Positions 4,244-47,930 of a stretch of 48,580 nucleotides of DNA are shown here, one piece after another. Position 1 is the stretch's first letter, and every line of letters begins with the position of its first letter. Position numbers and translations under genes: made by a program. A model generated the notes under the pieces. The model saw only the letters and a program-made list of their open reading frames with translations. It made no database searches and had not been told where the DNA came from. Origin of the DNA: a virus (taxonomy: Duplodnaviria; Caudoviricetes); IMG/VR virus record IMGVR_UViG_3300020508_000071, positions 1-48,580 of that record. One strand, 5' to 3'.

Positions 4244-5845
4244 TTATTTAATGAATTCGTTTTCGTATTCTTCTCGTTTAAGAACATGAACATTTCTTTC
4301 AACTGAAGAGCCATCACAAACATAAAGATATTCTAAGCCGTATGCATTTTTTGTAGATAAGACTACTACGCTTTTCCATATTTTTTGAACTGAGATAATC
4401 GTTTCTCTTGCGTATCCATCATGCAGTGGTCTACCATCCCATTGATGTTCTAAATATAGCCAACCCTTTCCTTGGTGATTAGGGTCTAGCAACCTGATAT
4501 CTGGCAATCCGCCATTTAAGTATCTTTGCAACAACTTCTTCTTGATGCTTTTATGATCTTTGTTAAGAATTTTGTATTCGCCAGATGGCATGCGTTTCCA
4601 CTCAAAGAATTGCTTCTTTTCGCAAAATTCGGGTGTAAAAAATTCTTGGATCATTAAAAAGTCATTGTAATTTTTCCGAACCTCAAAAACTTTTTCCATA
4701 CCTAAACCAAGGTTCAAGTTCCATTCTGCTTTTTTCTTCATGTCTGGACAATTTTCATATTCAGATCCAAATCGACCTTTGTTCCAGCGATCCTCAATAT
4801 CTAAAAGCAGTTCGAATCCAAGTTTATAAGGATTTTGGCTATATTTGCCACCTAGAACTCGCATTTTATGTTCTGCATAATGCCAAATTCCAGCATCTTC
4901 CGTTTTCTGACCTAAAGACACTAGCCCCATTCGACATAAAATGTGGAAGTCAACAAAGCTGGCCCAACCTTCGTTGGTCATTTTGGTTGCACGCTGAGGG
5001 CTAAAATACATCGCCTCGTCATACAGCATCGAAATTATGTCTTGCTGCCAAGGCTTCAAAGGAGCATTATCTTTTAAAAATCCTAAAATGTCCTTGCAAG
5101 ATCCTCCAAATAAGTCTAAAAAACTTGCAGCATCCTGTCTCTTGATTTGTTCGTTTTGCTTATCGATGAACTGTTTGGGATTTACCCATTCGTCCATGTA
5201 ATTGTTTTGGGCTTTTAGTCTTTGAGGGTGATTGTATGTTCTGTCGTCTCGCACAACAGCTTCTTTGATTCTCTTTTTGTGCCAAGCTTTATTAGGATCT
5301 ATAAGAGTTTCAAGACGCAAACAATGATCAATAAATTCGGTAACTACCTCATTCCCCCAACGAGCCATATACTTGCGAATTCTAGTGCCGTGATTAGCTA
5401 ATTTATTCATCATATTTTCATCTGTTGGCTCAAAGAAAATATTATTTTTGAAAAAATCATTGTGACCAATAGCGTGAGCGATAACATCAACATTATCTAC
5501 AAGCGTGTTTGAGTCCATGCAGTAGATATAGCATGGATTTGTATTGATGACCATTTCTGAAATGCGATATTGATTATGCTCATACCCACGAGCCATTTCT
5601 TCGTATTCCATTCCAAATCGCCAGTGGGGATATCTGACAGGAAACCCTCCATAACTAGCTAGTTCGGCCATTTCGTCATATCGAACAAACTCAACAATGA
5701 TAGGATAATAATCTAATCCCATGGTCTTACAGGCACTTTCAATCTGAGGAAGAACCGCTCTAACCTCTTTATGAATTTTCAGTCCGGGGATCGTATTGTC
5801 GCCAACCAAAATAGGAGACCCACTCAACATTTTAGATTTCGTCAT
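4244..5845 (-). CDS. spoVR: SpoVR/YcgB family protein
   Basis: GFPVRYPHWRFG, EMVINTNPC, AHAIGHNDFFKNN, TKMTNEGWAS and NPYKLG motifs. Confidence 0.93.
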   Translation of the reverse strand: MTKSKMLSGSPILVGDNTIPGLKIHKEVRAVLPQIESACKTMGLDYYPIIVEFVRYDEMAELASYGGFPVRYPHWRFGMEYEEMARGYEHNQYRISEMVINTNPCYIYCMDSNTLVDNVDVIAHAIGHNDFFKNNIFFEPTDENMMNKLANHGTRIRKYMARWGNEVVTEFIDHCLRLETLIDPNKAWHKKRIKEAVVRDDRTYNHPQRLKAQNNYMDEWVNPKQFIDKQNEQIKRQDAASFLDLFGGSCKDILGFLKDNAPLKPWQQDIISMLYDEAMYFSPQRATKMTNEGWASFVDFHILCRMGLVSLGQKTEDAGIWHYAEHKMRVLGGKYSQNPYKLGFELLLDIEDRWNKGRFGSEYENCPDMKKKAEWNLNLGLGMEKVFEVRKNYNDFLMIQEFFTPEFCEKKQFFEWKRMPSGEYKILNKDHKSIKKKLLQRYLNGGLPDIRLLDPNHQGKGWLYLEHQWDGRPLHDGYARETIISVQKIWKSVVVLSTKNAYGLEYLYVCDGSSVERNVHVLKREEYENEFIK

Positions 5846-5907
5846 AATTAACCTCTATCGTGTTTATTTGAAACACAAAATTGACTCGCATAGAACTTAA
5901 AGATATC

Positions 5908-6918
5908 TTACACAATCTCAGATAAAGAAACAAGTCTTGCTCTGACTTCCATGATTGCTTTTGACCAATCTTTGTCTTCAGATTGTCGGAATAATTCCAT
6001 CGATGGATACCAACAAGTAGAAGTATCTGTGCCCCATCTTGGATCAGAATTATATGGCAATAAACCAAATGCTTTCTTATGAAGTGCTCCTGCAAGATGA
6101 AGCACAGCAGTATCGACAGATATTACGCAATCACATTGTTGAATGTACGCTGCGGTATCATACAGATCGCCTATTTGTAGAGGGCAAATCCAAATAGGGC
6201 TTGTAATGTTGGGTTGCAAGCAATACAAATTTACAGTTGGCAACGCAAAGGCATAAAACTCACTAACTGCTATGCTTTTTTCTTTGGACAATGGATTGTC
6301 TCCATTGGATTGCCACACTACACCTACTTTGAAGCGTCCATTTAATTCTTCCCCCTCAAAAGCACCTAAAATAGCTTGCGGAGGAATTTCAAAACGCATG
6401 TTTTCTTCAAAATGAACTGGATAATAAAAATCCTTGCTCAATCCGTTTAGAAGAGACGGAATGCTCATAATATTGGTAGAAAAATCACACACCACATGAA
6501 ATGGCGTAAATTGATCAATATAGTCCTGAGTAGCCATTAGTCTCTCAAACTGATTGAAAAATGCATAACAGTTTAAAACTATTTTGCAATCATATTTTTC
6601 TTTTAACTTTTGAACATATCTCAACAAATTGATTGTATCGCCCATGCCTTGATCGCAAAAAATCTCAATACTTTTTCCATCAAGATTTTCTCCTAACCAA
6701 ATCTTACCAAATTGATTGTCGAGATTTGGTGCAGGTTGATTAAAAGTTGTTAACTGAAGTTTGTCCATGCAACTTTTCAAAAGTGGGTGATCAGCATTTA
6801 TTTTTTGGACAGCAAGAAGTGCCTCCATACCTCTATTTGGTCGGCCTGTGCAAAAAAAATTATTTGCCATAGCCAAAGTTTGAACAATAAACTTTTCAAA
6901 TTCTGGATTGTCTGACAT
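5908..6918 (-). CDS. GT9 (heptosyltransferase-like) family protein
   Basis: W.GE.L.GK, DQGMGDTI, DTAAYI..CDCVISVDTAVLHLAGAL and WYPSMELFRQ motifs. Confidence 0.82.
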   Translation of the reverse strand: MSDNPEFEKFIVQTLAMANNFFCTGRPNRGMEALLAVQKINADHPLLKSCMDKLQLTTFNQPAPNLDNQFGKIWLGENLDGKSIEIFCDQGMGDTINLLRYVQKLKEKYDCKIVLNCYAFFNQFERLMATQDYIDQFTPFHVVCDFSTNIMSIPSLLNGLSKDFYYPVHFEENMRFEIPPQAILGAFEGEELNGRFKVGVVWQSNGDNPLSKEKSIAVSEFYAFALPTVNLYCLQPNITSPIWICPLQIGDLYDTAAYIQQCDCVISVDTAVLHLAGALHKKAFGLLPYNSDPRWGTDTSTCWYPSMELFRQSEDKDWSKAIMEVRARLVSLSEIV

Positions 6919-6925
6919 TTGAGTG

Positions 6926-8095
6926 CTAATTGCCTAACAGCTTTTTGATCCCGTTTATTATTTGGTCATTGCGATCATTCTCTGGCATAATACCGCCCAA
7001 TGCTGATCCGATATTAACAGTTCGAACGTGTTCTTTGTTTAATTGACCAGCGATTAATTTGTCATCAATGTACTGCTTAACGCTATGCTCTGGTGAATAT
7101 GCACAAATTTGTGCAATCCCCACAGAATTAACAACGCCTTCAGGGAATTTTTCTTGAACTAATTTTACAACACGCTCATTGTCTCCGTCCCAATTATCAC
7201 CATCAGTGAAGTAAAAGACGTAAATGTTAAATTTCTGAGGTGGGTAGCGATTTTCAAGTTGTTCAGCGATAGCCTCAAATGCTGAAGAGCATCGAGTCCC
7301 ACCGCCATATCGATACCTGTAAAATTGTTCTTCGTTAACTTCTTGGGCATTAGTATCATGAACAAAGTAGCATCGATCTACACGCTTATAGAATCTTCTA
7401 ATCCAGCAATCAATCCACCAAGCCATATCAGATACGATATCGCATCGATATGCGTCCATCGATCCAGAGCAATCCCGAGCGAAAAAGATCACAGCATTAG
7501 ATGCTGGAATCTTGATCTGTCGATATTGGCGATAACGAAAGTCTTGTTTGATTGGAGTAATTACCTTCATGGGCACACTGGCACCGGGAACCATTTGCAG
7601 CTTGTCTAACTTACGTGCCATCGCAAGTCTTTTCAAAGCTTCTTTCATGGTTCTGCGAGTGTGTCGCAAAGAATTCAGACCAACTTTGGAAATATCGTTA
7701 TACTTGATCTTAACTTCTTCAAATGTTTCGTTCGGCTTAGGCTTCATGAAAGGAAGCTTCAATTCTTCTTCCATGAACTTCAGGACATCTTCCATATCGA
7801 TTTGTATTTGGATGCCCTCACCCGATTGATCTCCAGCCTTATTGCCCTTCCCCGGCTTAGGGTCCCGGCCAATGATATCACCTTCCTTCCCCGGACCTCT
7901 ACCAATGCCTTCACCTGTATCACCATGTACAAAGTGTGGAATGTCAATTTGAGGAATGGAGATCGTTACTTTCCCGCCTTTTGGGCGTTGCCGAACAATT
8001 GATCCCGATTTAATTAAACGCTTGAGTTCTTGCCTTGTACGACCAGAAACAACGTCTCTAAATTTTTTATGATCTTCTTGGATTCGCTTAGGCAT
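6926..8095 (-). CDS. yeaH: YeaH/YhbH (DUF444) vWA-type protein
   Basis: Gly-rich linker, DFRYR, MIDAS-like DCSGSM, GGTRCSSA and FYFTDGDNW motifs. Confidence 0.9.
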   Translation of the reverse strand: MPKRIQEDHKKFRDVVSGRTRQELKRLIKSGSIVRQRPKGGKVTISIPQIDIPHFVHGDTGEGIGRGPGKEGDIIGRDPKPGKGNKAGDQSGEGIQIQIDMEDVLKFMEEELKLPFMKPKPNETFEEVKIKYNDISKVGLNSLRHTRRTMKEALKRLAMARKLDKLQMVPGASVPMKVITPIKQDFRYRQYRQIKIPASNAVIFFARDCSGSMDAYRCDIVSDMAWWIDCWIRRFYKRVDRCYFVHDTNAQEVNEEQFYRYRYGGGTRCSSAFEAIAEQLENRYPPQKFNIYVFYFTDGDNWDGDNERVVKLVQEKFPEGVVNSVGIAQICAYSPEHSVKQYIDDKLIAGQLNKEHVRTVNIGSALGGIMPENDRNDQIINGIKKLLGN

Positions 8096-8100
8096 TTAGC

Positions 8101-8129
8101 ACCTTATTTTTCGTGATGTTTTGCGTCAA
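8101..8129 (-). promoter_or_regulatory. possible sigma70-type promoter
   Basis: TTGACG-N17-TAAGGT ending 5 nt before the ATG at 8095; the hexamer could instead act as an SD. Confidence 0.4.
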
Positions 8130-8178
8130 TTCATGACATAAGATTTGTTATCAGTGTATTTGTAGAAAAACACATCGA

Positions 8179-8502
8179 TCAAACCGAAAAGTTCTTAATT
8201 TTGATCAACTTAGGATCTGTGCCCACTAGCAATAATTCATTCAATGGGAACAAAATGTCTGTCTGAGTTTTTGCCGCAGATTTGCCAATTTCCAATAAGA
8301 CAAGTGTATCTGGTCCGGCTACAACGTAATCAAATTGAAATTGACCCAATGTGCTAGTAAGCGTTGTACTTTTTTCTCTGAGCGTTTGGCCTTGGGCGAT
8401 TTCGAAATCAAAATCTACTACCGTAGAGACTTCTCTGATTTCTTTGAATTTTTGATGTTTAGCCATCAAATCTTCGTACTTTTTGACTTCAGATGTTTCC
8501 AT
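8179..8502 (-). CDS. hypothetical protein
   Basis: 107-aa ORF between prkA and yeaH. Confidence 0.6.
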   Translation of the reverse strand: METSEVKKYEDLMAKHQKFKEIREVSTVVDFDFEIAQGQTLREKSTTLTSTLGQFQFDYVVAGPDTLVLLEIGKSAAKTQTDILFPLNELLLVGTDPKLIKIKNFSV

Positions 8503-8517
8503 AATAACTTTCCATTC

Positions 8518-8545
8518 AGTGGCTCAGCCCAATTACTGAGCCACT
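8518..8545. other. 10-bp stem hairpin downstream of prkA
   Basis: AGTGGCTCAG-N8-CTGAGCCACT; no U-tract on the - strand. Confidence 0.6.
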
Positions 8546-8565
8546 AATTACAACTCTTATCTCAC

Positions 8566-10653
8566 TTAATTAGAAATATCACCTCTGGCAAAAATGCTAG
8601 AGACATAATCCAAAACATCAGTTGCAGATTGTTGATTGTAACCATGTTGCTTAATCAATCGTGTCTTAATCGCATCGATCTTCTCTTGCAAATCTGGATC
8701 AAGCTGTGCTGCTTCCTTAGTCAAGGCCGACAACTTAATTGTGTCTTTGACATCCTCGAAAACTTTAGCCTCCAAAGCTCGCTTAAGCTCTGCGTTCGAG
8801 TCCCATCGGAATTGCTTATTACGTGTTGCTAAAGTTCCGATAAAGGATGCAATCGAACGGCGGAAATCATCGCATCCCTGTTCTGGAATGCCTGCTTTTT
8901 CTTCAATGGCACGCATCAAACGTTCATCTGGGTCCATTTTAGATCCAGTGATTGGATGAATCATCTTTTCGTCATTCACATAGGCGATAATGTTGTCAAC
9001 GTACTTAGCACAAACTCTTTCGATTGCCTTTTCGTCAGCCACCAAAGCACGCTGAACTTCATTCTTAAGAATTTCGTCCAACTCTTTGATTGCCAATTCT
9101 GCACAGTACTCGTATCGCTTCACGTCCTCGACATTAGTAATCAAAGATGATTGGCTAAGTCCATCTTTAAGTTCGCTCAAAACATGGAATACATTGATGT
9201 AATCCTTATTTCTTGCAAGGCGAGTTGCAATCTTGTCCTGAACATATCTAGCCGAAAGACCATGGAAGCCTTCATCAGAGTGTTTGTCTCTGAGTTCCTT
9301 TACGGTGTCCTGAGTCCATCCGGGTAGCTCTCGACCATCGTACAATTTAGCTTTGTCTCTAAGATCGAGCTTGCCATCCCCGTCATCTTCTAAGCGGGTC
9401 AAAACAGCGAACAAAGCTGCAATTTCCAAAGTATGAGGCATAATGTGCTGACGCACCTTGCCTATTCCATAAGTGTGCTCATACACCTTAATTTCGTCGC
9501 TCCAACGGAGTAAGTATGGCACATCAACTTTGACGGTACGATCTCGCAAAGCTTCCATAAATTGATTGTTCTTGAGCTTTTCAAACTCAGGATTGTTGGT
9601 GTGAGCAATAATAACTTCATCAATGGTAACCTGAGAAAATTTCTTAGGTTTAATATTGTGTTCTTGTGTTGCACCAAGCAAGTCATACAAAAACGCATTA
9701 TCAAGCTTGAGCATTTCAATAAATTCACAAACACCTCTGTTGGCAACTTCAAATTCGCCGTCGAAATTGAATGCACGAGGGTCAGAATCAGATCCAAATT
9801 GACCGATCTTGGAGAAGTTCATATCTCCTGTCAATTCTGTCGAGTCTTGATTTTTTTCATCCTTAGGTTGGAATGTTCCAATGCCGACACGATCAGTTTC
9901 ACTGTGAACTCGACGAATGACTCTAATATGGTTCTCAACGACCTTTAGCCAATCGCCATCATATCTCTTCAAGAGCAATGACATAAATAGCTTGCAGCGA
10001 GGATTCAAATCACCCTCACCACCAAGCACATACAAGGAGTTGCGTTCAGCTTCTGGGGTCGCATTTTTAAGAATCCTATTAAGATCCTTAAAAATTTCTG
10101 CACGCATAGCTGGCGGCATAAGCTTAATTGGGTTTTCGTTCATAGGGCAAACATCTTCAGTGTTAGTGTAGACGGCTGGCCCATGTTCATCGGCTATCGT
10201 AGGTAAATTCACCCATTTAAAGGTGTACCAAGCTCCTTGCTGAGATTTGGAATACTGTTCCAATCCTCTCTTCAATCGGCGACAAATGGTTGACTTAGAA
10301 GAACCAACTGGCCCATGCAATAGAAGCACACGTCGCTCTGTGCCATATCCACCAGCGGCTCCATGAATAAAATCTACAAAGCTTGCCAAAGTTTCTTCGA
10401 GGCCAAAAACTGGGATTTCTTGATCTTCAAAGAAATGATACTTTGTATAAGTCTTACGGTAACGCTCAAAAGAGGTAGTGCCCTTTTCAATAATCATGTC
10501 ATAGACATATTGAAAAGCGTTCCTAGCCAACCGTGGATTTTTTTCACATAAATCCATGTACTCGGAAAAACTCATTTCTTCATTTAAAGCAAGAAACTCA
10601 TTGCGATCATAAAAATTGGCATACTTGGCAAGTGCAGTCTGATTATCTGACAT
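8566..10653 (-). CDS. prkA: PrkA/YeaG family AAA+ serine protein kinase
   Basis: Walker A LHGPVGSSKST, plus DEKNQDSTELTG, ANRG, AHTN.PE and EALRDR motifs. Confidence 0.95.
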   Translation of the reverse strand: MSDNQTALAKYANFYDRNEFLALNEEMSFSEYMDLCEKNPRLARNAFQYVYDMIIEKGTTSFERYRKTYTKYHFFEDQEIPVFGLEETLASFVDFIHGAAGGYGTERRVLLLHGPVGSSKSTICRRLKRGLEQYSKSQQGAWYTFKWVNLPTIADEHGPAVYTNTEDVCPMNENPIKLMPPAMRAEIFKDLNRILKNATPEAERNSLYVLGGEGDLNPRCKLFMSLLLKRYDGDWLKVVENHIRVIRRVHSETDRVGIGTFQPKDEKNQDSTELTGDMNFSKIGQFGSDSDPRAFNFDGEFEVANRGVCEFIEMLKLDNAFLYDLLGATQEHNIKPKKFSQVTIDEVIIAHTNNPEFEKLKNNQFMEALRDRTVKVDVPYLLRWSDEIKVYEHTYGIGKVRQHIMPHTLEIAALFAVLTRLEDDGDGKLDLRDKAKLYDGRELPGWTQDTVKELRDKHSDEGFHGLSARYVQDKIATRLARNKDYINVFHVLSELKDGLSQSSLITNVEDVKRYEYCAELAIKELDEILKNEVQRALVADEKAIERVCAKYVDNIIAYVNDEKMIHPITGSKMDPDERLMRAIEEKAGIPEQGCDDFRRSIASFIGTLATRNKQFRWDSNAELKRALEAKVFEDVKDTIKLSALTKEAAQLDPDLQEKIDAIKTRLIKQHGYNQQSATDVLDYVSSIFARGDISN

Positions 10654-17228: not shown

Positions 17229-17591
17229 ATGCCACTTTACGAATTTCAATGCTTAGATTGTAAAAAGCGATATGATGACATAGCAACTTTTGATGATAAA
17301 GGAATTTACCCGACCGTTGAATGCCCTAGTTGTCACTCACAGAAAAAGACAAAACTTGTATCAGCTTGTTGCTTTCAGTTTTCAAATCCAGTAGGAACTG
17401 ACCGTTGGAACAATAATTCCACCGGTCATGATTACAGGTTCAAACACAATATTCCAAAGGTAAAAGCAGAAAGGCAAATGGCCGAAGCTTTATCACATAT
17501 GGGTGCTGACCCATATGGATCTTCTATTGAACAGGATTTGCAATTAGATACAGGAATTCATGATCCAGAAACCAGACCCGGTTTATCCTAA
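17229..17591 (+). CDS. FmdB-family zinc-ribbon protein
   Basis: MPLYEFQCLDC...CPSC.S.K..KLVS. Confidence 0.85.
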   Translation: MPLYEFQCLDCKKRYDDIATFDDKGIYPTVECPSCHSQKKTKLVSACCFQFSNPVGTDRWNNNSTGHDYRFKHNIPKVKAERQMAEALSHMGADPYGSSIEQDLQLDTGIHDPETRPGLS

Positions 17592-18266
17592 GTCTATCTC
17601 TGTTTTGTCTCCATCGGAAGAACTGAAAATGACTGAGTCTAAAATTACACTCCAGTCTTCAAAATATTTTTTGCCTAGTAAATGATCACAGCTACCCTTT
17701 TTCACATAAGCCAAAGTACAATGTGGCTTATAAATTGGGTAGCTTGATGTATGAGGCAAATCTTTCAAAGCTTTGTTAATTTTGTGTAGAATTTTTCCTT
17801 CAACAGATATTTTCAAAACATCATACTCTTCAGATTCAAACTTAGAAATTTCTCCAAATGATATTTCTTCTGGCTTAAAATTACTTACAATTTTCTCTAC
17901 ATCATCTGGCTTTGAAGTATGCAACCCATACAAAAGGGTAATGTGAATCTCATCTTCACGGCCTTTTTCTCCATCTGTAAAAAGAACATCATCAGGAATG
18001 TGTTTCTTAGACCAACTCAAAACTTTAGATGCATCTTTGTCTTTGAGATCAAACATAACACAAGAAAAACTATATTTACCAAATCCTTCATGGACTTGAG
18101 GTAATTGATAAGTAAATTTTGTTTTTTTACGTTTTTTACCAGAAGCCATTTCTTTCTCCCAATCTGAAACCCACCAACGTCGAGCCATACCTACTCGGTT
18201 TTGAAAATTTGCTACATCTGCTGTGCTAGTCATTGTTTCGTTTTGCAACCATTGTTTAAATTTCAT
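17583..18266 (-). CDS. 2H phosphoesterase, T4 gp57B/Acb1-like, with an N-terminal extension
   Basis: GREDEIHITLLYG and YKPHCTLAY provide two HxT motifs; N-terminus MKFKQWLQNE. Confidence 0.75.
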   Translation of the reverse strand: MKFKQWLQNETMTSTADVANFQNRVGMARRWWVSDWEKEMASGKKRKKTKFTYQLPQVHEGFGKYSFSCVMFDLKDKDASKVLSWSKKHIPDDVLFTDGEKGREDEIHITLLYGLHTSKPDDVEKIVSNFKPEEISFGEISKFESEEYDVLKISVEGKILHKINKALKDLPHTSSYPIYKPHCTLAYVKKGSCDHLLGKKYFEDWSVILDSVIFSSSDGDKTEIDLG

Positions 18267-21431: not shown

Positions 21432-21605
21432 AAAATAAAAATGGCTGTACTCTCCAGCCTGTGTTCGGTTCGGCTTCACCCGATTACCCCCTTTTCAAGT
21501 CATCCTCGTGTGTTGGCGAGAATAAGGGTCCTAGGGGCACCTCATAACCACTTCACGGACTTCGCTTGACTCAACGTTGTCACCGATAGCAGGTTTCGCA
21601 TAAGC
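21432..21605 (-). ncRNA. candidate structured ncRNA at the 3' end of the tRNA-like cluster
   Basis: GC-enriched non-coding stretch ending in GGCTG-GAGAGTA-CAGCC followed by ATTTTTATTTT. Confidence 0.4.
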
Positions 21606-21607
21606 AA

Positions 21608-21710
21608 TGAATTGGGCAGGATTTAAACCTGCTTACAACTACTAAGGCCAATAGTTGCTAAACCTTAAAGCCTCCAAGGTCATGCGTGTCCCCACCACGC
21701 CGCCAATTCA
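21608..21710 (-). tRNA. tRNA-like RNA with a non-canonical anticodon arm and a long variable arm
   Basis: Acceptor GAATTGG/CCAATTC, D stem GCGT/ACGC, T arm GCAGG-TTTAAAT-CCTGC and a 10-bp variable stem; no standard anticodon loop. Confidence 0.65.
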
Positions 21711-21712
21711 AA

Positions 21713-21780
21713 TATGTTAGACAGGATTCGAACCTGCGACTGGGAGCTACCCACGCTCTGACCAACTGAGCTACTAACAT
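21713..21780 (-). tRNA. tRNA-like RNA with a shrunken anticodon arm
   Basis: Acceptor ATGTTAG/CTAACAT, D arm GCTC-AGTTGGTCA-GAGC, T arm GCAGG-TTCGAAT-CCTGT; the anticodon arm is only TGGG-TAGCT-CCCA. Confidence 0.75.
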
Positions 21781-21806
21781 CCAGTAAGCATATAGCTTAC
21801 TACAGT

Positions 21807-21878
21807 TGTCTGGAATTACTTTCTTCTCCTGTGTAGCGACTCGAACGCAGCAGGCCACCTTACTAACAACTCCAGACA
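21807..21878 (-). ncRNA. T-loop-containing structured RNA
   Basis: Closing stem TGTCTGGAG/TTCCAGACA encloses GCG-TTCGAGT-CGC; not a cloverleaf. Confidence 0.5.
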
Positions 21879-21885
21879 TCTGCAA

Positions 21886-22004
21886 TGGGTCAGGCAGGAC
21901 TCGAACCTGCACAGCAAATACTCTCCGGTGATCAAATCCGTAACCATCTTTGCCCATAAGTATCACTTGATAAAAGTGACGCTCTGCCTTTAAGCTACCG
22001 ACCC
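21886..22004 (-). tRNA. tRNA-like RNA with nominal anticodon TAT (Ile) and a 52-nt variable region
   Basis: Acceptor GGGTCGG/CTGACCC, D arm GCTT-AAAGGCA-GAGC, anticodon arm TCACT-TTTATCA-AGTGA, T arm GCAGG-TTCGAGT-CCTGC. Confidence 0.75.
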
Positions 22005-22013
22005 CTGCAATTC

Positions 22014-22042
22014 ATGATATTCACGCCAAGTAACTCAGTCAA
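22014..22042 (-). promoter_or_regulatory. sigma70-type promoter of the tRNA-like cluster
   Basis: TTGACT-N17-TATCAT; predicted TSS near 22007, a few nt before the first element. Confidence 0.7.
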
Positions 22043-44991: not shown

Positions 44992-46584
44992 CTATTTTTC
45001 TTCATCTTTTTGATTGTAAACTTCTGAAAAACTTTCCCATCCTCCATCGCCTTCCATGGCTACGCCACTAATAGAGTCATCTATTTCATCCTTTGGCTTC
45101 CATGCTTTCTTGTTTTTATCGATGTCACGAACCATGTCGGTTTCAACCTCAGACGAGGCATATTCTTTATGAGAATTCAAACGCAACTTGTATTCATTGT
45201 GATGTATTTCTTGAATTTTAAGACTTTCCTTATCAAATGATAGGTAAATCTGATAGCGGCTTTTACCATCACGTTGTTTTACTACATATCCACGCCCAAT
45301 GCCCAAAAACTTTTCTGTATCATTTTGGTTAAGAGAAATACAGCCATCGAGAGGACGTATTTGACCATATGAATCAGCTAAGTGATCATCATCTAAACGA
45401 CCTTTATCTCCCTTGCCATCCTTCTTGCCATCTCTATTTGGTTGCATAGCTGTGGCTATAAACAACTTTTCTTCCATGGCCATTCCACGCAATTCACGGA
45501 CATTTCTTTCTCTCGATTCTGGCGTCTTCATTTCAGGATGAAGTGCCATTTCTCCAACATAATCAAGAATTACAAAGTCTGGATCAAATCCTTGAAATCG
45601 TAATTGACTAATGTAGGCTCGAATAGTGTTTACCGTTGCGGTTCCAGCGGGGAATTGCTTGATAATGAGAGGTCCAATTTCCGAATTCAAATCGACATTT
45701 TGTAAATTCTCCAACCTCTTAAAAATGTCATCCTTGTTGTCCAGCAAATTTTGAACTGGTAAACCTGTAAGAATTGCATCCATTCGATCAGCAACTTTTG
45801 GCTCTGCCAGTTCAAGTGTTATATAAACGCCTTTCTTGCCGCGACACAAGTTTGTTGCAGCCAGACATGCAAGCATAACTGATTTACCAACACCTGAGCC
45901 AGCTATAATTGATACAATTTCACCACGGCTGTATCCGCCACCACCTATTTCAGAATCAATAGATGGTAGGCCAAAAATAAAACGATCCTGAGTGTCTGTA
46001 GTTTCTGCTTTTTCAGCATATCGTTCTTGAAGACTCTTAAAATAGTCCATGCCTAAGTCAAAGTTTTGCTGCGTCTGCATGGCTGTACGCATTTCGTCAT
46101 AAACTTTAGACCATGTCTCTTCCGATTCTGGTGCCTTGTCAATTAGCTTTAATGAGTCTTGAAAAGCTTTCTTAACTGACTGTATTTTTGCAAAACATAA
46201 TATTTTGTCTTGTAAATACTCTCTAGCTTCTAATCCCGGTTGGAAATAATCAAACAAAACATTGACTTCACCTAAATAAAACGACAATGCTTTGTTGTCT
46301 TTTAACTGAGTTTTTATTTCGCTTACAAGAAAGTCTTTACGAGGTAAAATTCGGTATTTCTTAAAAAAGTTGAAAACAATTTCGCAAATCTTAGCATGGG
46401 CTTTGTTGGTGAAGTAATTTGGCTTCACAATATCGATTGACTGGAGCAAAAATTGTCTATCAGAAATTAACAGCGATGTAATGTGTCTCTGAAAGTCTTC
46501 GTCCCAAGAATACTTAGAATCGACACTCGCATCAGGATCAACTAATGTGGGGTCATCTAAAAACTGTTCATCACTCATGAGCAC
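44992..46584 (-). CDS. DnaB / T4 gp41-like replicative helicase
   Basis: Walker A AGSGVGKS, YITLEL, IIKQFP, ILDYV, TAMQPNR and KQRDG motifs. Confidence 0.92.
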   Translation of the reverse strand: MLMSDEQFLDDPTLVDPDASVDSKYSWDEDFQRHITSLLISDRQFLLQSIDIVKPNYFTNKAHAKICEIVFNFFKKYRILPRKDFLVSEIKTQLKDNKALSFYLGEVNVLFDYFQPGLEAREYLQDKILCFAKIQSVKKAFQDSLKLIDKAPESEETWSKVYDEMRTAMQTQQNFDLGMDYFKSLQERYAEKAETTDTQDRFIFGLPSIDSEIGGGGYSRGEIVSIIAGSGVGKSVMLACLAATNLCRGKKGVYITLELAEPKVADRMDAILTGLPVQNLLDNKDDIFKRLENLQNVDLNSEIGPLIIKQFPAGTATVNTIRAYISQLRFQGFDPDFVILDYVGEMALHPEMKTPESRERNVRELRGMAMEEKLFIATAMQPNRDGKKDGKGDKGRLDDDHLADSYGQIRPLDGCISLNQNDTEKFLGIGRGYVVKQRDGKSRYQIYLSFDKESLKIQEIHHNEYKLRLNSHKEYASSEVETDMVRDIDKNKKAWKPKDEIDDSISGVAMEGDGGWESFSEVYNQKDEEK

Positions 46585-46759: not shown

Positions 46760-46813
46760 AAAAAAAAAAAAAAAGAAACAGACTCCAAGGTAATATTATC
46801 TTGGAGTCTGTTT
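46760..46813 (-). terminator. intrinsic terminator
   Basis: AAACAGACTCCAAG/CTTGGAGTCTGTTT stem followed by C and U15. Confidence 0.85.
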
Positions 46814-46854
46814 TGGGGGCGAATAACCGCCGCACTCCACCAGTCGCAAGCGAC
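46760..46854 (-). ncRNA. candidate ~90-nt sRNA complementary to tmRNA termini
   Basis: Upstream promoter, 5' G(CUUG)C hairpin, UGGUGGAGUGCGGCGGUUAUUCGCCCCC core, and a 14-bp terminator with a long U-tract. Confidence 0.6.
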
Positions 46855-46860
46855 AAAATT

Positions 46861-46888
46861 ATTATACCTGAATTTTTAAGATTTGCAA
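46861..46888 (-). promoter_or_regulatory. sigma70-type promoter
   Basis: TTGCAA-N16-TATAAT; predicted TSS near 46854. Confidence 0.65.
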
Positions 46889-46917: not shown

Positions 46918-47505
46918 TCACTTTGCTTCTATGTGGCTAATTGCTTCTTGAGTGACTTGCAAACCTGTAAAATTAGCTATTCGTTGTACTTGAAAAACAG
47001 GATTTGATAACATGTCATGGTGGTGCATTTGCAAAATGTCTCCTTTGTAATTTTTAATCTGTTCGTGCATTTTGCCAACATAAAAATTTGCAAGAGGCAT
47101 GTATCTTTTTAAATCAGATTCTTTCAAGGCTATTGCCATGCTTTTTCCAATCTCATTGATTGGTCGATGACAAACAATAAGTTTGTGATTTGTTTGTAGA
47201 TTATAAACAAAACGTGATAAATTGGTGCATAGTAGAGGATCTTTTATGCCCCAAAGATCACTCTCTTGTTCACGTCGCTTAATTAAAGATGCATAATTAT
47301 CAAGCAATTGGGGATTTACATCAAGATCACCAGCATCAAATTTTGTATGAAAGTTTTTAAATTCAATATCTTCATAATAACCATGTATATTGTTTGAAGT
47401 TGGGCTATCGAACATAAAACCCATATTGACTCCTAGTTTCTGCAATACGCCAGCTACTGCACTTGTGCCGCTTCTATAACAACCCAAAACAATCACACAT
47501 GCCAT
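46918..47505 (-). CDS. sulfotransferase-family protein
   Basis: VLGCYRSGTS (PAPS-binding loop), N..GYYED and WGIKDP motifs. Confidence 0.85.
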   Translation of the reverse strand: MACVIVLGCYRSGTSAVAGVLQKLGVNMGFMFDSPTSNNIHGYYEDIEFKNFHTKFDAGDLDVNPQLLDNYASLIKRREQESDLWGIKDPLLCTNLSRFVYNLQTNHKLIVCHRPINEIGKSMAIALKESDLKRYMPLANFYVGKMHEQIKNYKGDILQMHHHDMLSNPVFQVQRIANFTGLQVTQEAISHIEAK

Positions 47506-47507
47506 AT

Positions 47508-47930
47508 TCAAAAACCTTCTTTTGTCCAATTAACTAAGGGCTTCAAAATTAAAAACTTAAAGTCACTTTGTGCACTGCTCGCATCCATTCGGTTTGGTAT
47601 GTATGTCGCAAAATAACGCATAAATATATCATATTCATGACGATTAATTGCATAAAATTTTTCCCCCCAATTCGAATTTGAAGTTACCGAAATTATGAAA
47701 TAATTTTCAGAAGCGAACCACACTGTAGGATCGAGAAAAACAACAGTATCAATACTATAACGGCGTAATAAACCATACAAAGAATATGAAAATATAAAGT
47801 TATTGATTTGAATGCTTTCAACAAAACTTCGATTGCCTCCCCTAAATTCACATCGAATATTTTTGTTATCTAAAACTAATTCGCCTACACCTAATAAATT
47901 AAGTGTGGTCGTATTCATATCCATGCTCAT
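47508..47930 (-). CDS. hypothetical protein
   Basis: 140-aa ORF ending WTKEGF. Confidence 0.55.
   Translation of the reverse strand: MSMDMNTTTLNLLGVGELVLDNKNIRCEFRGGNRSFVESIQINNFIFSYSLYGLLRRYSIDTVVFLDPTVWFASENYFIISVTSNSNWGEKFYAINRHEYDIFMRYFATYIPNRMDASSAQSDFKFLILKPLVNWTKEGF

Follow-up and report, generated by a model that had tools for sequence, protein, structure and literature searches.

We identified a conserved RNA module of phages with two arms that complement the 5′ and 3′ ends of the commonest class of bacterial tmRNA. Folding models suggest that this RNA probably acts in trans by clamping host tmRNA and stopping trans-translation. The module was recognized on the minus strand of a 48,580-nt stretch of phage DNA, hereafter called the window, at positions 46888–46760. 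Twelve other phage loci with varied gene contexts carry it as well, giving 13 distinct modules including that of the window.

Anatomy of the unit

The unit comprises a promoter-like site, a hairpin, a UGGUGGAG-U-GCGGCGG arm, a loop, a CGCCCCC arm, and a terminator. All parts named in the original prediction (the promoter hexamers, a CUUG hairpin, a 28-nt core, and a terminator) were found at the predicted minus-strand positions. The −35-like hexamer TTGCAA (46883–46888), a consensus match that is not above chance in the region, and the −10 hexamer TATAAT (46861–46866) are separated by a 16-nt spacer. Together they agree with the consensus at 10 of 12 positions and predict a start at approximately 46854. 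The hexamers are thus present as described, but the match is no better than chance, as one pair was found in the 400-nt region and 1.3 were expected. The idea that the unit has its own promoter is likewise weak despite the consensus site, because most copies of the module just follow a same-strand stop codon or sit inside a tmRNA transcript.

In the predicted fold, the 5′ hairpin H1 (46843–46854) has 4 bp and a CUUG loop and abuts the first arm; it is predicted to stack on the duplex formed at the tmRNA 3′ end. The 28-nt core (46842–46815) begins with the seed UGGUGGAG (46835–46842), which is complementary to the CUCCACCA terminus shared by tmRNA and tRNA-Ala. A bulged U and GCGGCGG follow (46827–46834); in the three-strand fold, this segment is the complement of the remaining acceptor 3′ strand and the T-stem 3′ strand, and it doubles as the 5′ side of an internal hairpin, H2. 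The second arm, CGCCCCC (46815–46821), is complementary to the tmRNA 5′ end GGGGGCG, and its CGCC closes H2 by pairing with GGCG (probability about 0.98). The core is therefore predicted to be partly self-paired. The pairing of the second arm within the RNA had been missed in the original prediction.

The unit ends in an intrinsic terminator-like hairpin of 14 bp followed by a run of 15 T (46760–46813; stem 46813–46776). Its arm is paired with a probability of about 1.0 and contains ACUCC, which could pair with the core; the hairpin stays intact in folds with and without bound tmRNA. This hairpin was absent from the list of the terminator scan; its 10-nt loop exceeds the 8-nt limit of the scan. 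The fold of the predicted minus-strand RNA gave z = −5.0 (0/200 shuffles), and the two-arm pattern occurred once in the window and not at all in 300 dinucleotide shuffles of it.

Predicted pairing with bacterial tmRNA

A sample of bacterial tmRNA was drawn from 1/64 parts of the collection and contained 120 loci. The sequence CGCCGCCTCCACCA was the commonest 3′ end (33/120), and GGGGGCG was the commonest start, occurring in 38 of the 69 genes with both ends; 24 of these 38 continued with A. The tmRNA class that matches the unit starts with GGGGGCG and ends with CGCCGCCUCCACCA. When matches in the phylum of genome G009 were counted by hand, the exact end was present in 20/40 and the matching acceptor strand in 37/40.

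In folds that ignore pseudoknots, SmpB, and kinetics, the window RNA formed 15 bp, interrupted by one bulge, with the tmRNA 3′ end and 7 bp with the 5′ end, and H1 abutted the terminal A of tmRNA. This agrees well with the original prediction of pairing over about 15 nt of the 3′ end, with one bulge, and 7–10 nt of the 5′ end. Averaged over 21 matching tmRNA end pairs, the net energy reached −23.3 kcal/mol, versus −14.7 kcal/mol for 48 others. Core shuffles used as controls gave −2.3 kcal/mol (0/200 reached the observed value), and the opposite strand gave −6.8 kcal/mol. Energies of −18 to −23 kcal/mol were obtained with five full-length tmRNAs. Among tRNAs, five tRNA-Ala gave −10 to −13, tRNA-Tyr −5.5, and five others −2 to −3 kcal/mol. 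The comparison with tmRNA and tRNA-Ala sets that had been proposed thus points to tmRNA as a much better predicted partner than tRNA-Ala or tRNA-Tyr. For each of the 13 modules, both arms took part in the minimum-energy complex for 15 to 21 of the 21 targets, and the best-bound class was a GGGGGCG class for 11 of them. The original prediction had staked itself on a tmRNA complementary to both halves of the core, and a common bacterial class does complement both arms.

The module is not a normal internal part of bacterial tmRNA. TGGTGG[AC] was found within 200 nt before the 3′ end in 0 of the 120 sampled loci, some of which are cut by contig ends and few of which are permuted genes. The module pattern was also scanned in 301 genomes of the phylum of G011 and 301 of that of G009 (read as Acidobacteriota and Planctomycetota), where it occurred at chance level (9 versus 4 controls and 4 versus 9 controls). 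None of these 13 matches lay beside a tmRNA, and 12 were in long ORFs. One bacterial-genome candidate (L610) was not accepted as a module, as it had neither an abutting hairpin nor a tmRNA. An anti-leader RNA directed against the phage's own mRNAs was also considered and rejected: in the part of the genome covered, about 10%, the main coding strand contained no occurrence of the complement CTCCACCA, either in the window or in L226, a 167-kb contig with the same DNA.

Copies of the module in other phages

Sequence comparison indicates that the unit is a real, conserved, but patchy phage module; the search of phage contigs that had been suggested as a check found it at the 12 further loci. In the contig whose helicase is 86% identical to that of the window (L021 = L255), the unit occupies the same place. 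The 15-nt arm is identical there, and H1, the top of H2, and the terminator are changed but still pair. A weaker promoter-like site (8/12) with similar spacing was seen by eye in L255 and was not listed by the promoter scan. The terminator also has a counterpart in L267, again with an altered stem. A search of 49 helicase-linked loci, a set that contains duplicates and the contig of the window itself, for only the 7-mer and a GC-rich tail gave two more copies near relatives of the helicase. These are L267 and a shortened form in L256, and each directly follows the stop of a different gene. The sequence-only model R1 found the window, L255, L256, and L267 as the only hits among 55 sources. The module pattern was absent from all five related records examined, two of which are near complete.

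Pattern scans of viral contigs added L310, L288, L029, L102 (= L079), L042, L565 (= L140, L542, L545), L544 (= L547), L549, and L086. The broad pattern scan covered 23 of 64 parts of the viral contigs. The scans yielded 101 distinct matches; 64 fell within long ORFs, and a further 14 were flagged as tmRNA 3′ ends read on the opposite strand. From the remaining 23, three more opposite-strand tmRNA matches, probable coding matches, and three fully self-paired hairpins (L114, L115, and L118) were dropped by eye, while L544 and L086 were retained despite overlapping long open frames because of their tmRNA context. Ten of the 13 modules came from patterns imposing the core and were chosen by eye; since the patterns impose the core, the independent support for these copies is their context. 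Exact 16-mer and 15-mer scans of viral contigs gave 20 and 81 loci, respectively, with one true copy (L219 = L021) and the remainder attributable to chance. The discarded hairpins of L114/L122, L115, and L118 look intergenic, with the UGGUGGAG arm wholly paired to itself, and are possibly terminators or a closed form of the module.

The seed UGGUGGAG was invariant in the 12 aligned modules and in L086, an invariance largely imposed by the search patterns. GCCCC of the second arm was also invariant in the 12 aligned modules, and the junction after the seed varied (U, A, G, none, or GA). A stem of at least five Watson–Crick pairs abutted the seed in 7 of the 13 modules versus 22 of 435 other UGGUGGAG sites, an enrichment that is partly circular because H1 helped to select the modules. 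A near-identical small hairpin was observed before the module in L102 (near 2484–2500) and just after the module in L310.

Association with phage tmRNA genes

Seven of the 13 modules are tied to phage tmRNA, five of them within or directly 5′ of the gene and two nearby. Those of L029, L102, L042, and L565 lie just 5′ of permuted tmRNAs, that of L086 is inside a one-piece tmRNA at the expected pk3/pk4 position, and a same-strand tmRNA is located approximately 0.35 kb from the L544 module and 2.7 kb from the L288 module. The five fused modules are upstream of the helix 2 3′ strand of the tmRNA genes; the RF04321 match does not include them, and with RF00023 they fall in the pk3/pk4 part that is left unaligned. 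The UGGUGGAG strand was regarded as sense because the T-runs and the fused tmRNAs lie on it.

This association is what would be expected if the module bound a tmRNA end but regulated the phage's own tmRNA, as a cis latch on the precursor where it is fused and as a timing switch where it is separate. Any tmRNA end can pair with the 8-nt seed, only about 10% of the genome lies in the window, and a relative, G004, carries a tmRNA. Outside the seed, however, the arms matched the common bacterial class more closely than they did the resident tmRNA in all six cases computed, L544 being left out as the 3′ exon of its tmRNA was not located. The window RNA bound the G004 tmRNA ends at only −7.9 kcal/mol, and G001, G002, and G003 had no tmRNA over the cut-off. 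We therefore consider regulation of the phage's own tmRNA unlikely. The energy of L042 with its own tmRNA (−11.9) was within the host range. The difference of the phage tmRNAs from the common class is a weak and non-diagnostic sign, because all five module-free phage tmRNAs examined also lacked the GGGGGCG start.

The module was absent from the four cultured phage records checked. No SmpB was found in five module-bearing records, and the RF-1/ArfB family was present in one of ten records, one that lacks the module. G002 (158 kb, rated complete) carries the module, no tmRNA over the cut-off, and no RF-1/ArfB-family gene. This case counts against the clamping of host tmRNA, as it is a module-bearing complete genome without an evident ribosome-rescue factor.

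Several features of the phage tmRNA genes were noted on the way. The tmRNA of G004 (L576, 1490–2090) is in one piece, with an apparent intron in the T loop and a tag read as GKNSYAMAA. The tmRNA downstream of the L544 module has an unusual 5′ end and an apparent T-loop intron, and a Twister-P5 ribozyme match lies upstream of that module (L544, 974–1950). In Tunturiibacter phage Tunturi_4 (L622, 2652–3504), an RF-1-domain (ArfB-like) gene directly precedes an unannotated permuted tmRNA; permuted tmRNAs are likewise unannotated in phages DLP_6 and PHB04.

Possible contribution of the second arm

The first arm alone might act in trans, catching or sensing uncharged CUCCACCA ends in general (those of tmRNA and tRNA-Ala) in the manner of a stripped-down T-box, with the second arm being just half of H2. 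UGGU next to a helix recalls the NCCA-pairing bulge of T-boxes, tRNA-Ala is still bound at −10 to −13 kcal/mol, and CGCC is paired internally. In addition, no arm-to-arm covariation with the target class was found, since the whole-collection scan for modules matching GGGG-N-UG tmRNA classes gave 88 matches and no convincing intergenic module; the best-looking one (L517) was rejected as coding, as it lies in a gene. In L544 and L549, one first-arm base fits another tmRNA class and the second arm has not changed accordingly; therefore, the second arm may be conserved only through closing H2. The changed first-arm base of L086 can still pair as U-G. On the other hand, GCGGCG is kept as a sequence and not through covariation, an unpaired C tail follows H2 in 12/12 aligned modules, tmRNA is bound about 10 kcal/mol better than tRNA-Ala, and no T-box match was obtained. 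On balance, a role of the first arm alone appears decidedly unlikely.

Genomic setting

The window comes from a very large phage, of whose genome it represents about 10%, and encodes a DnaB-like helicase, a gp32-like SSB, UvsX, DnaE, thymidylate synthase, and PrkA/YeaH/SpoVR. Relatives of the helicase were found on contigs of up to 693 kb. Cultured phages contained no close relative of it (best 34%), and blastn of the unit against them gave no useful match. An attempt to assign the host through the PrkA-like protein gave similar best scores in three phyla (747, 726, and 710 bits; 53–55%). The PrkA, YeaH, and SpoVR family genes are clustered at 4244–10653 on the minus strand, and a 2H phosphoesterase with a weak Acb1 match is located at 17583–18266 (minus). 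ARAGORN and Rfam detected no tmRNA in the window. A tRNA-like gene (RF00005, 50.7 bits) at 21886–22004 (minus) has an insert of approximately 50 nt in the variable arm and adjoins a tRNA-Pro-like gene with a short anticodon arm; the cluster at 21440–22020 looks like degenerate tRNAs.

A same-strand sulfotransferase-like gene (46918–47529, minus) stops 64 nt before the unit begins, so the unit could be its 3′ trailer. Downstream lies the gene of the DnaB-like replicative helicase (44992–46584, minus), a neighbour that was used to find relatives and is not a constant partner. These neighbours allow for a cis element, either an attenuator of the helicase gene or a 3′ trailer structure stabilizing or ending the upstream mRNA. 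The modules of the window, L255, L256, and L267 are indeed placed between a same-strand stop and a terminator, those of L310, L288, and L565 come just after a same-strand ORF, and ACUCC of the terminator arm could engage the core. We nevertheless judge a cis element improbable: the genes up- and downstream differ among copies, the terminator is almost always paired and stays intact with tmRNA bound, and neither the complementarity to tmRNA nor the fusion into tmRNAs would be explained.

Repetitive DNA occurs near several of these loci. CRISPR-like arrays of 36-nt repeats with short, uneven spacers lie just upstream of the helicase gene in L231, L233, and L261–L263, at the intergenic site occupied by the module in the window. 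Degenerate short repeats follow the module in L256 (3560–3900) and L267 (6540–6900), and then an ORF of approximately 340 aa that is transposase-like by eye.

The two alternatives attached to the original prediction fit poorly. The plus strand reads like joined tmRNA 5′ and 3′ ends, but an alanine microhelix decoy for AlaRS or SmpB made from it is very improbable, given its weak fold (z = −0.26), a stem broken by an inserted base, the absence of a T arm, no listed plus-strand promoter, and T-runs and fused tmRNAs on the opposite strand. Least credible is a functionless remnant, either of an attachment site or of a piece of tmRNA that had been captured. Integration commonly takes place at tmRNA 3′ ends (PMC11915505), but the att sites seen in this analysis carry a T loop that the unit lacks, both tmRNA ends are represented, the flanking hairpins are kept with compensating changes, and no integrase was found among the 42 window proteins scanned.

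Proposed model for the clamping of host tmRNA

Here, we propose a model in which the phage RNA disables host tmRNA in trans. The module would be made as an RNA of approximately 90 nt or as the trailer of an upstream operon. Its UGGU is predicted to bind the unpaired ACCA terminus of an uncharged tmRNA while H1 stacks on the final A, and the duplex would then grow along the acceptor stem and into the T stem. The CGCCCCC arm, released from H2, would catch the 5′ strand GGGGGCG set free in this way, so that folding predicts a double strand exchange. The G3-U70 acceptor helix would be lost in the clamped complex; going by established tmRNA biology, AlaRS, EF-Tu, and SmpB could then not use host tmRNA, and stalled phage proteins would escape tagging by it. 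Phages with their own tmRNA of a different acceptor stem would swap the host RNA for theirs. A plausible benefit is the shielding of phage proteins from tagging or the replacement of host tmRNA by that of the phage.

A fuller version of this proposal, to which we give about even chances, is that the module represents a new phage RNA family, free-standing or within phage tmRNA, which would capture the uncharged CCA end of host tmRNA through a toehold and inactivate this RNA by a double strand exchange of its acceptor stem. In tmRNA-bearing phages, it would constitute a kill-and-replace system handing ribosome rescue and tagging to the phage. If this is true, the module would be a natural antisense inhibitor of trans-translation, which almost every bacterium carries out, and would give viruses a new means of shutting off the protein quality control of the host. 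It would also be a natural example of two-arm strand exchange on a tRNA-like stem and provide a sequence-defined laboratory tool of approximately 45 nt for switching off ribosome rescue. Furthermore, the question of why phages carry tmRNA would become testable, as some of them would shut down the host tmRNA and put their own in its place.

Comparison with known systems

The original prediction knew of no described element of this kind. Consistent with this, searches of full-text papers available without subscription showed no tmRNA inhibitor of the antisense type. The word "antisense" is absent from the main text of PMC11915505 and PMC4131195, although phage genes of this kind could be present in the sequence supplements of PMC11915505. 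No Rfam family matched the unit at the cut-off. At E values up to 10, only hairpin-level matches far below the cut-off appeared, the best being RT-14 with 30 of 48 bits on the other strand. The function of phage tmRNA is treated as an open question in PMC9004378, and defence systems acting on tmRNA are predicted in PMC11090510, a possible further context for the module.

The unit has neither the tRNA-like domain with a T arm nor the tag reading frame of tmRNA (RF00023 and RF04321), although five modules form part of standard or permuted phage tmRNA genes. In the T-box riboswitch, UGGN pairs with NCCA and a helix stacks on the acceptor end (PMC7583486). Similarly, UGGU of the unit (46842–46839) pairs with ACCA in folds and could select uncharged RNA. 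However, the unit lacks Stem I, the specifier, Stem II, and Stem III, and it would invade the acceptor stem, whereas a T-box stacks on the intact stem. The T-box model gave no match at E values up to 10, and the predicted RNA has no more than 12 nt ahead of the seed. No antiterminator was predicted, the terminator being intact with and without the target, and the downstream genes vary.

The TLD-only tmRNA of mycobacteriophage DS6A is another phage small RNA linked to the inhibition of host tmRNA; PMC4131195 and PMC11915505, citing Mao et al. 2009, present it as a tRNA-like domain in sense orientation that is presumed to titrate SmpB. In contrast, the terminator-defined strand of the unit is antisense, without a T arm or a CCA end, and the plus-strand core also has no T arm to accompany a sense acceptor stem.

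The unit is outside every RNA family tested, and its nearest functional kind is the phage anti-sRNA sponge. As judged by sequence and folding only, it is a phage-encoded, terminator-ended RNA complementary to a host non-coding RNA. The prophage sponges AsxR and AgvB bind Hfq and target the regulatory sRNAs FnrS and GcvB (Tree et al. 2014, as cited in PMC8065619), and they share with the unit the principle of a phage-encoded small RNA pairing with a host non-coding RNA to neutralize it. Unlike these sponges, the unit has tmRNA rather than a regulatory sRNA as its predicted target. It is complementary to the two ends of a housekeeping RNA that is aminoacylated, and some of its copies form a domain of phage tmRNA.
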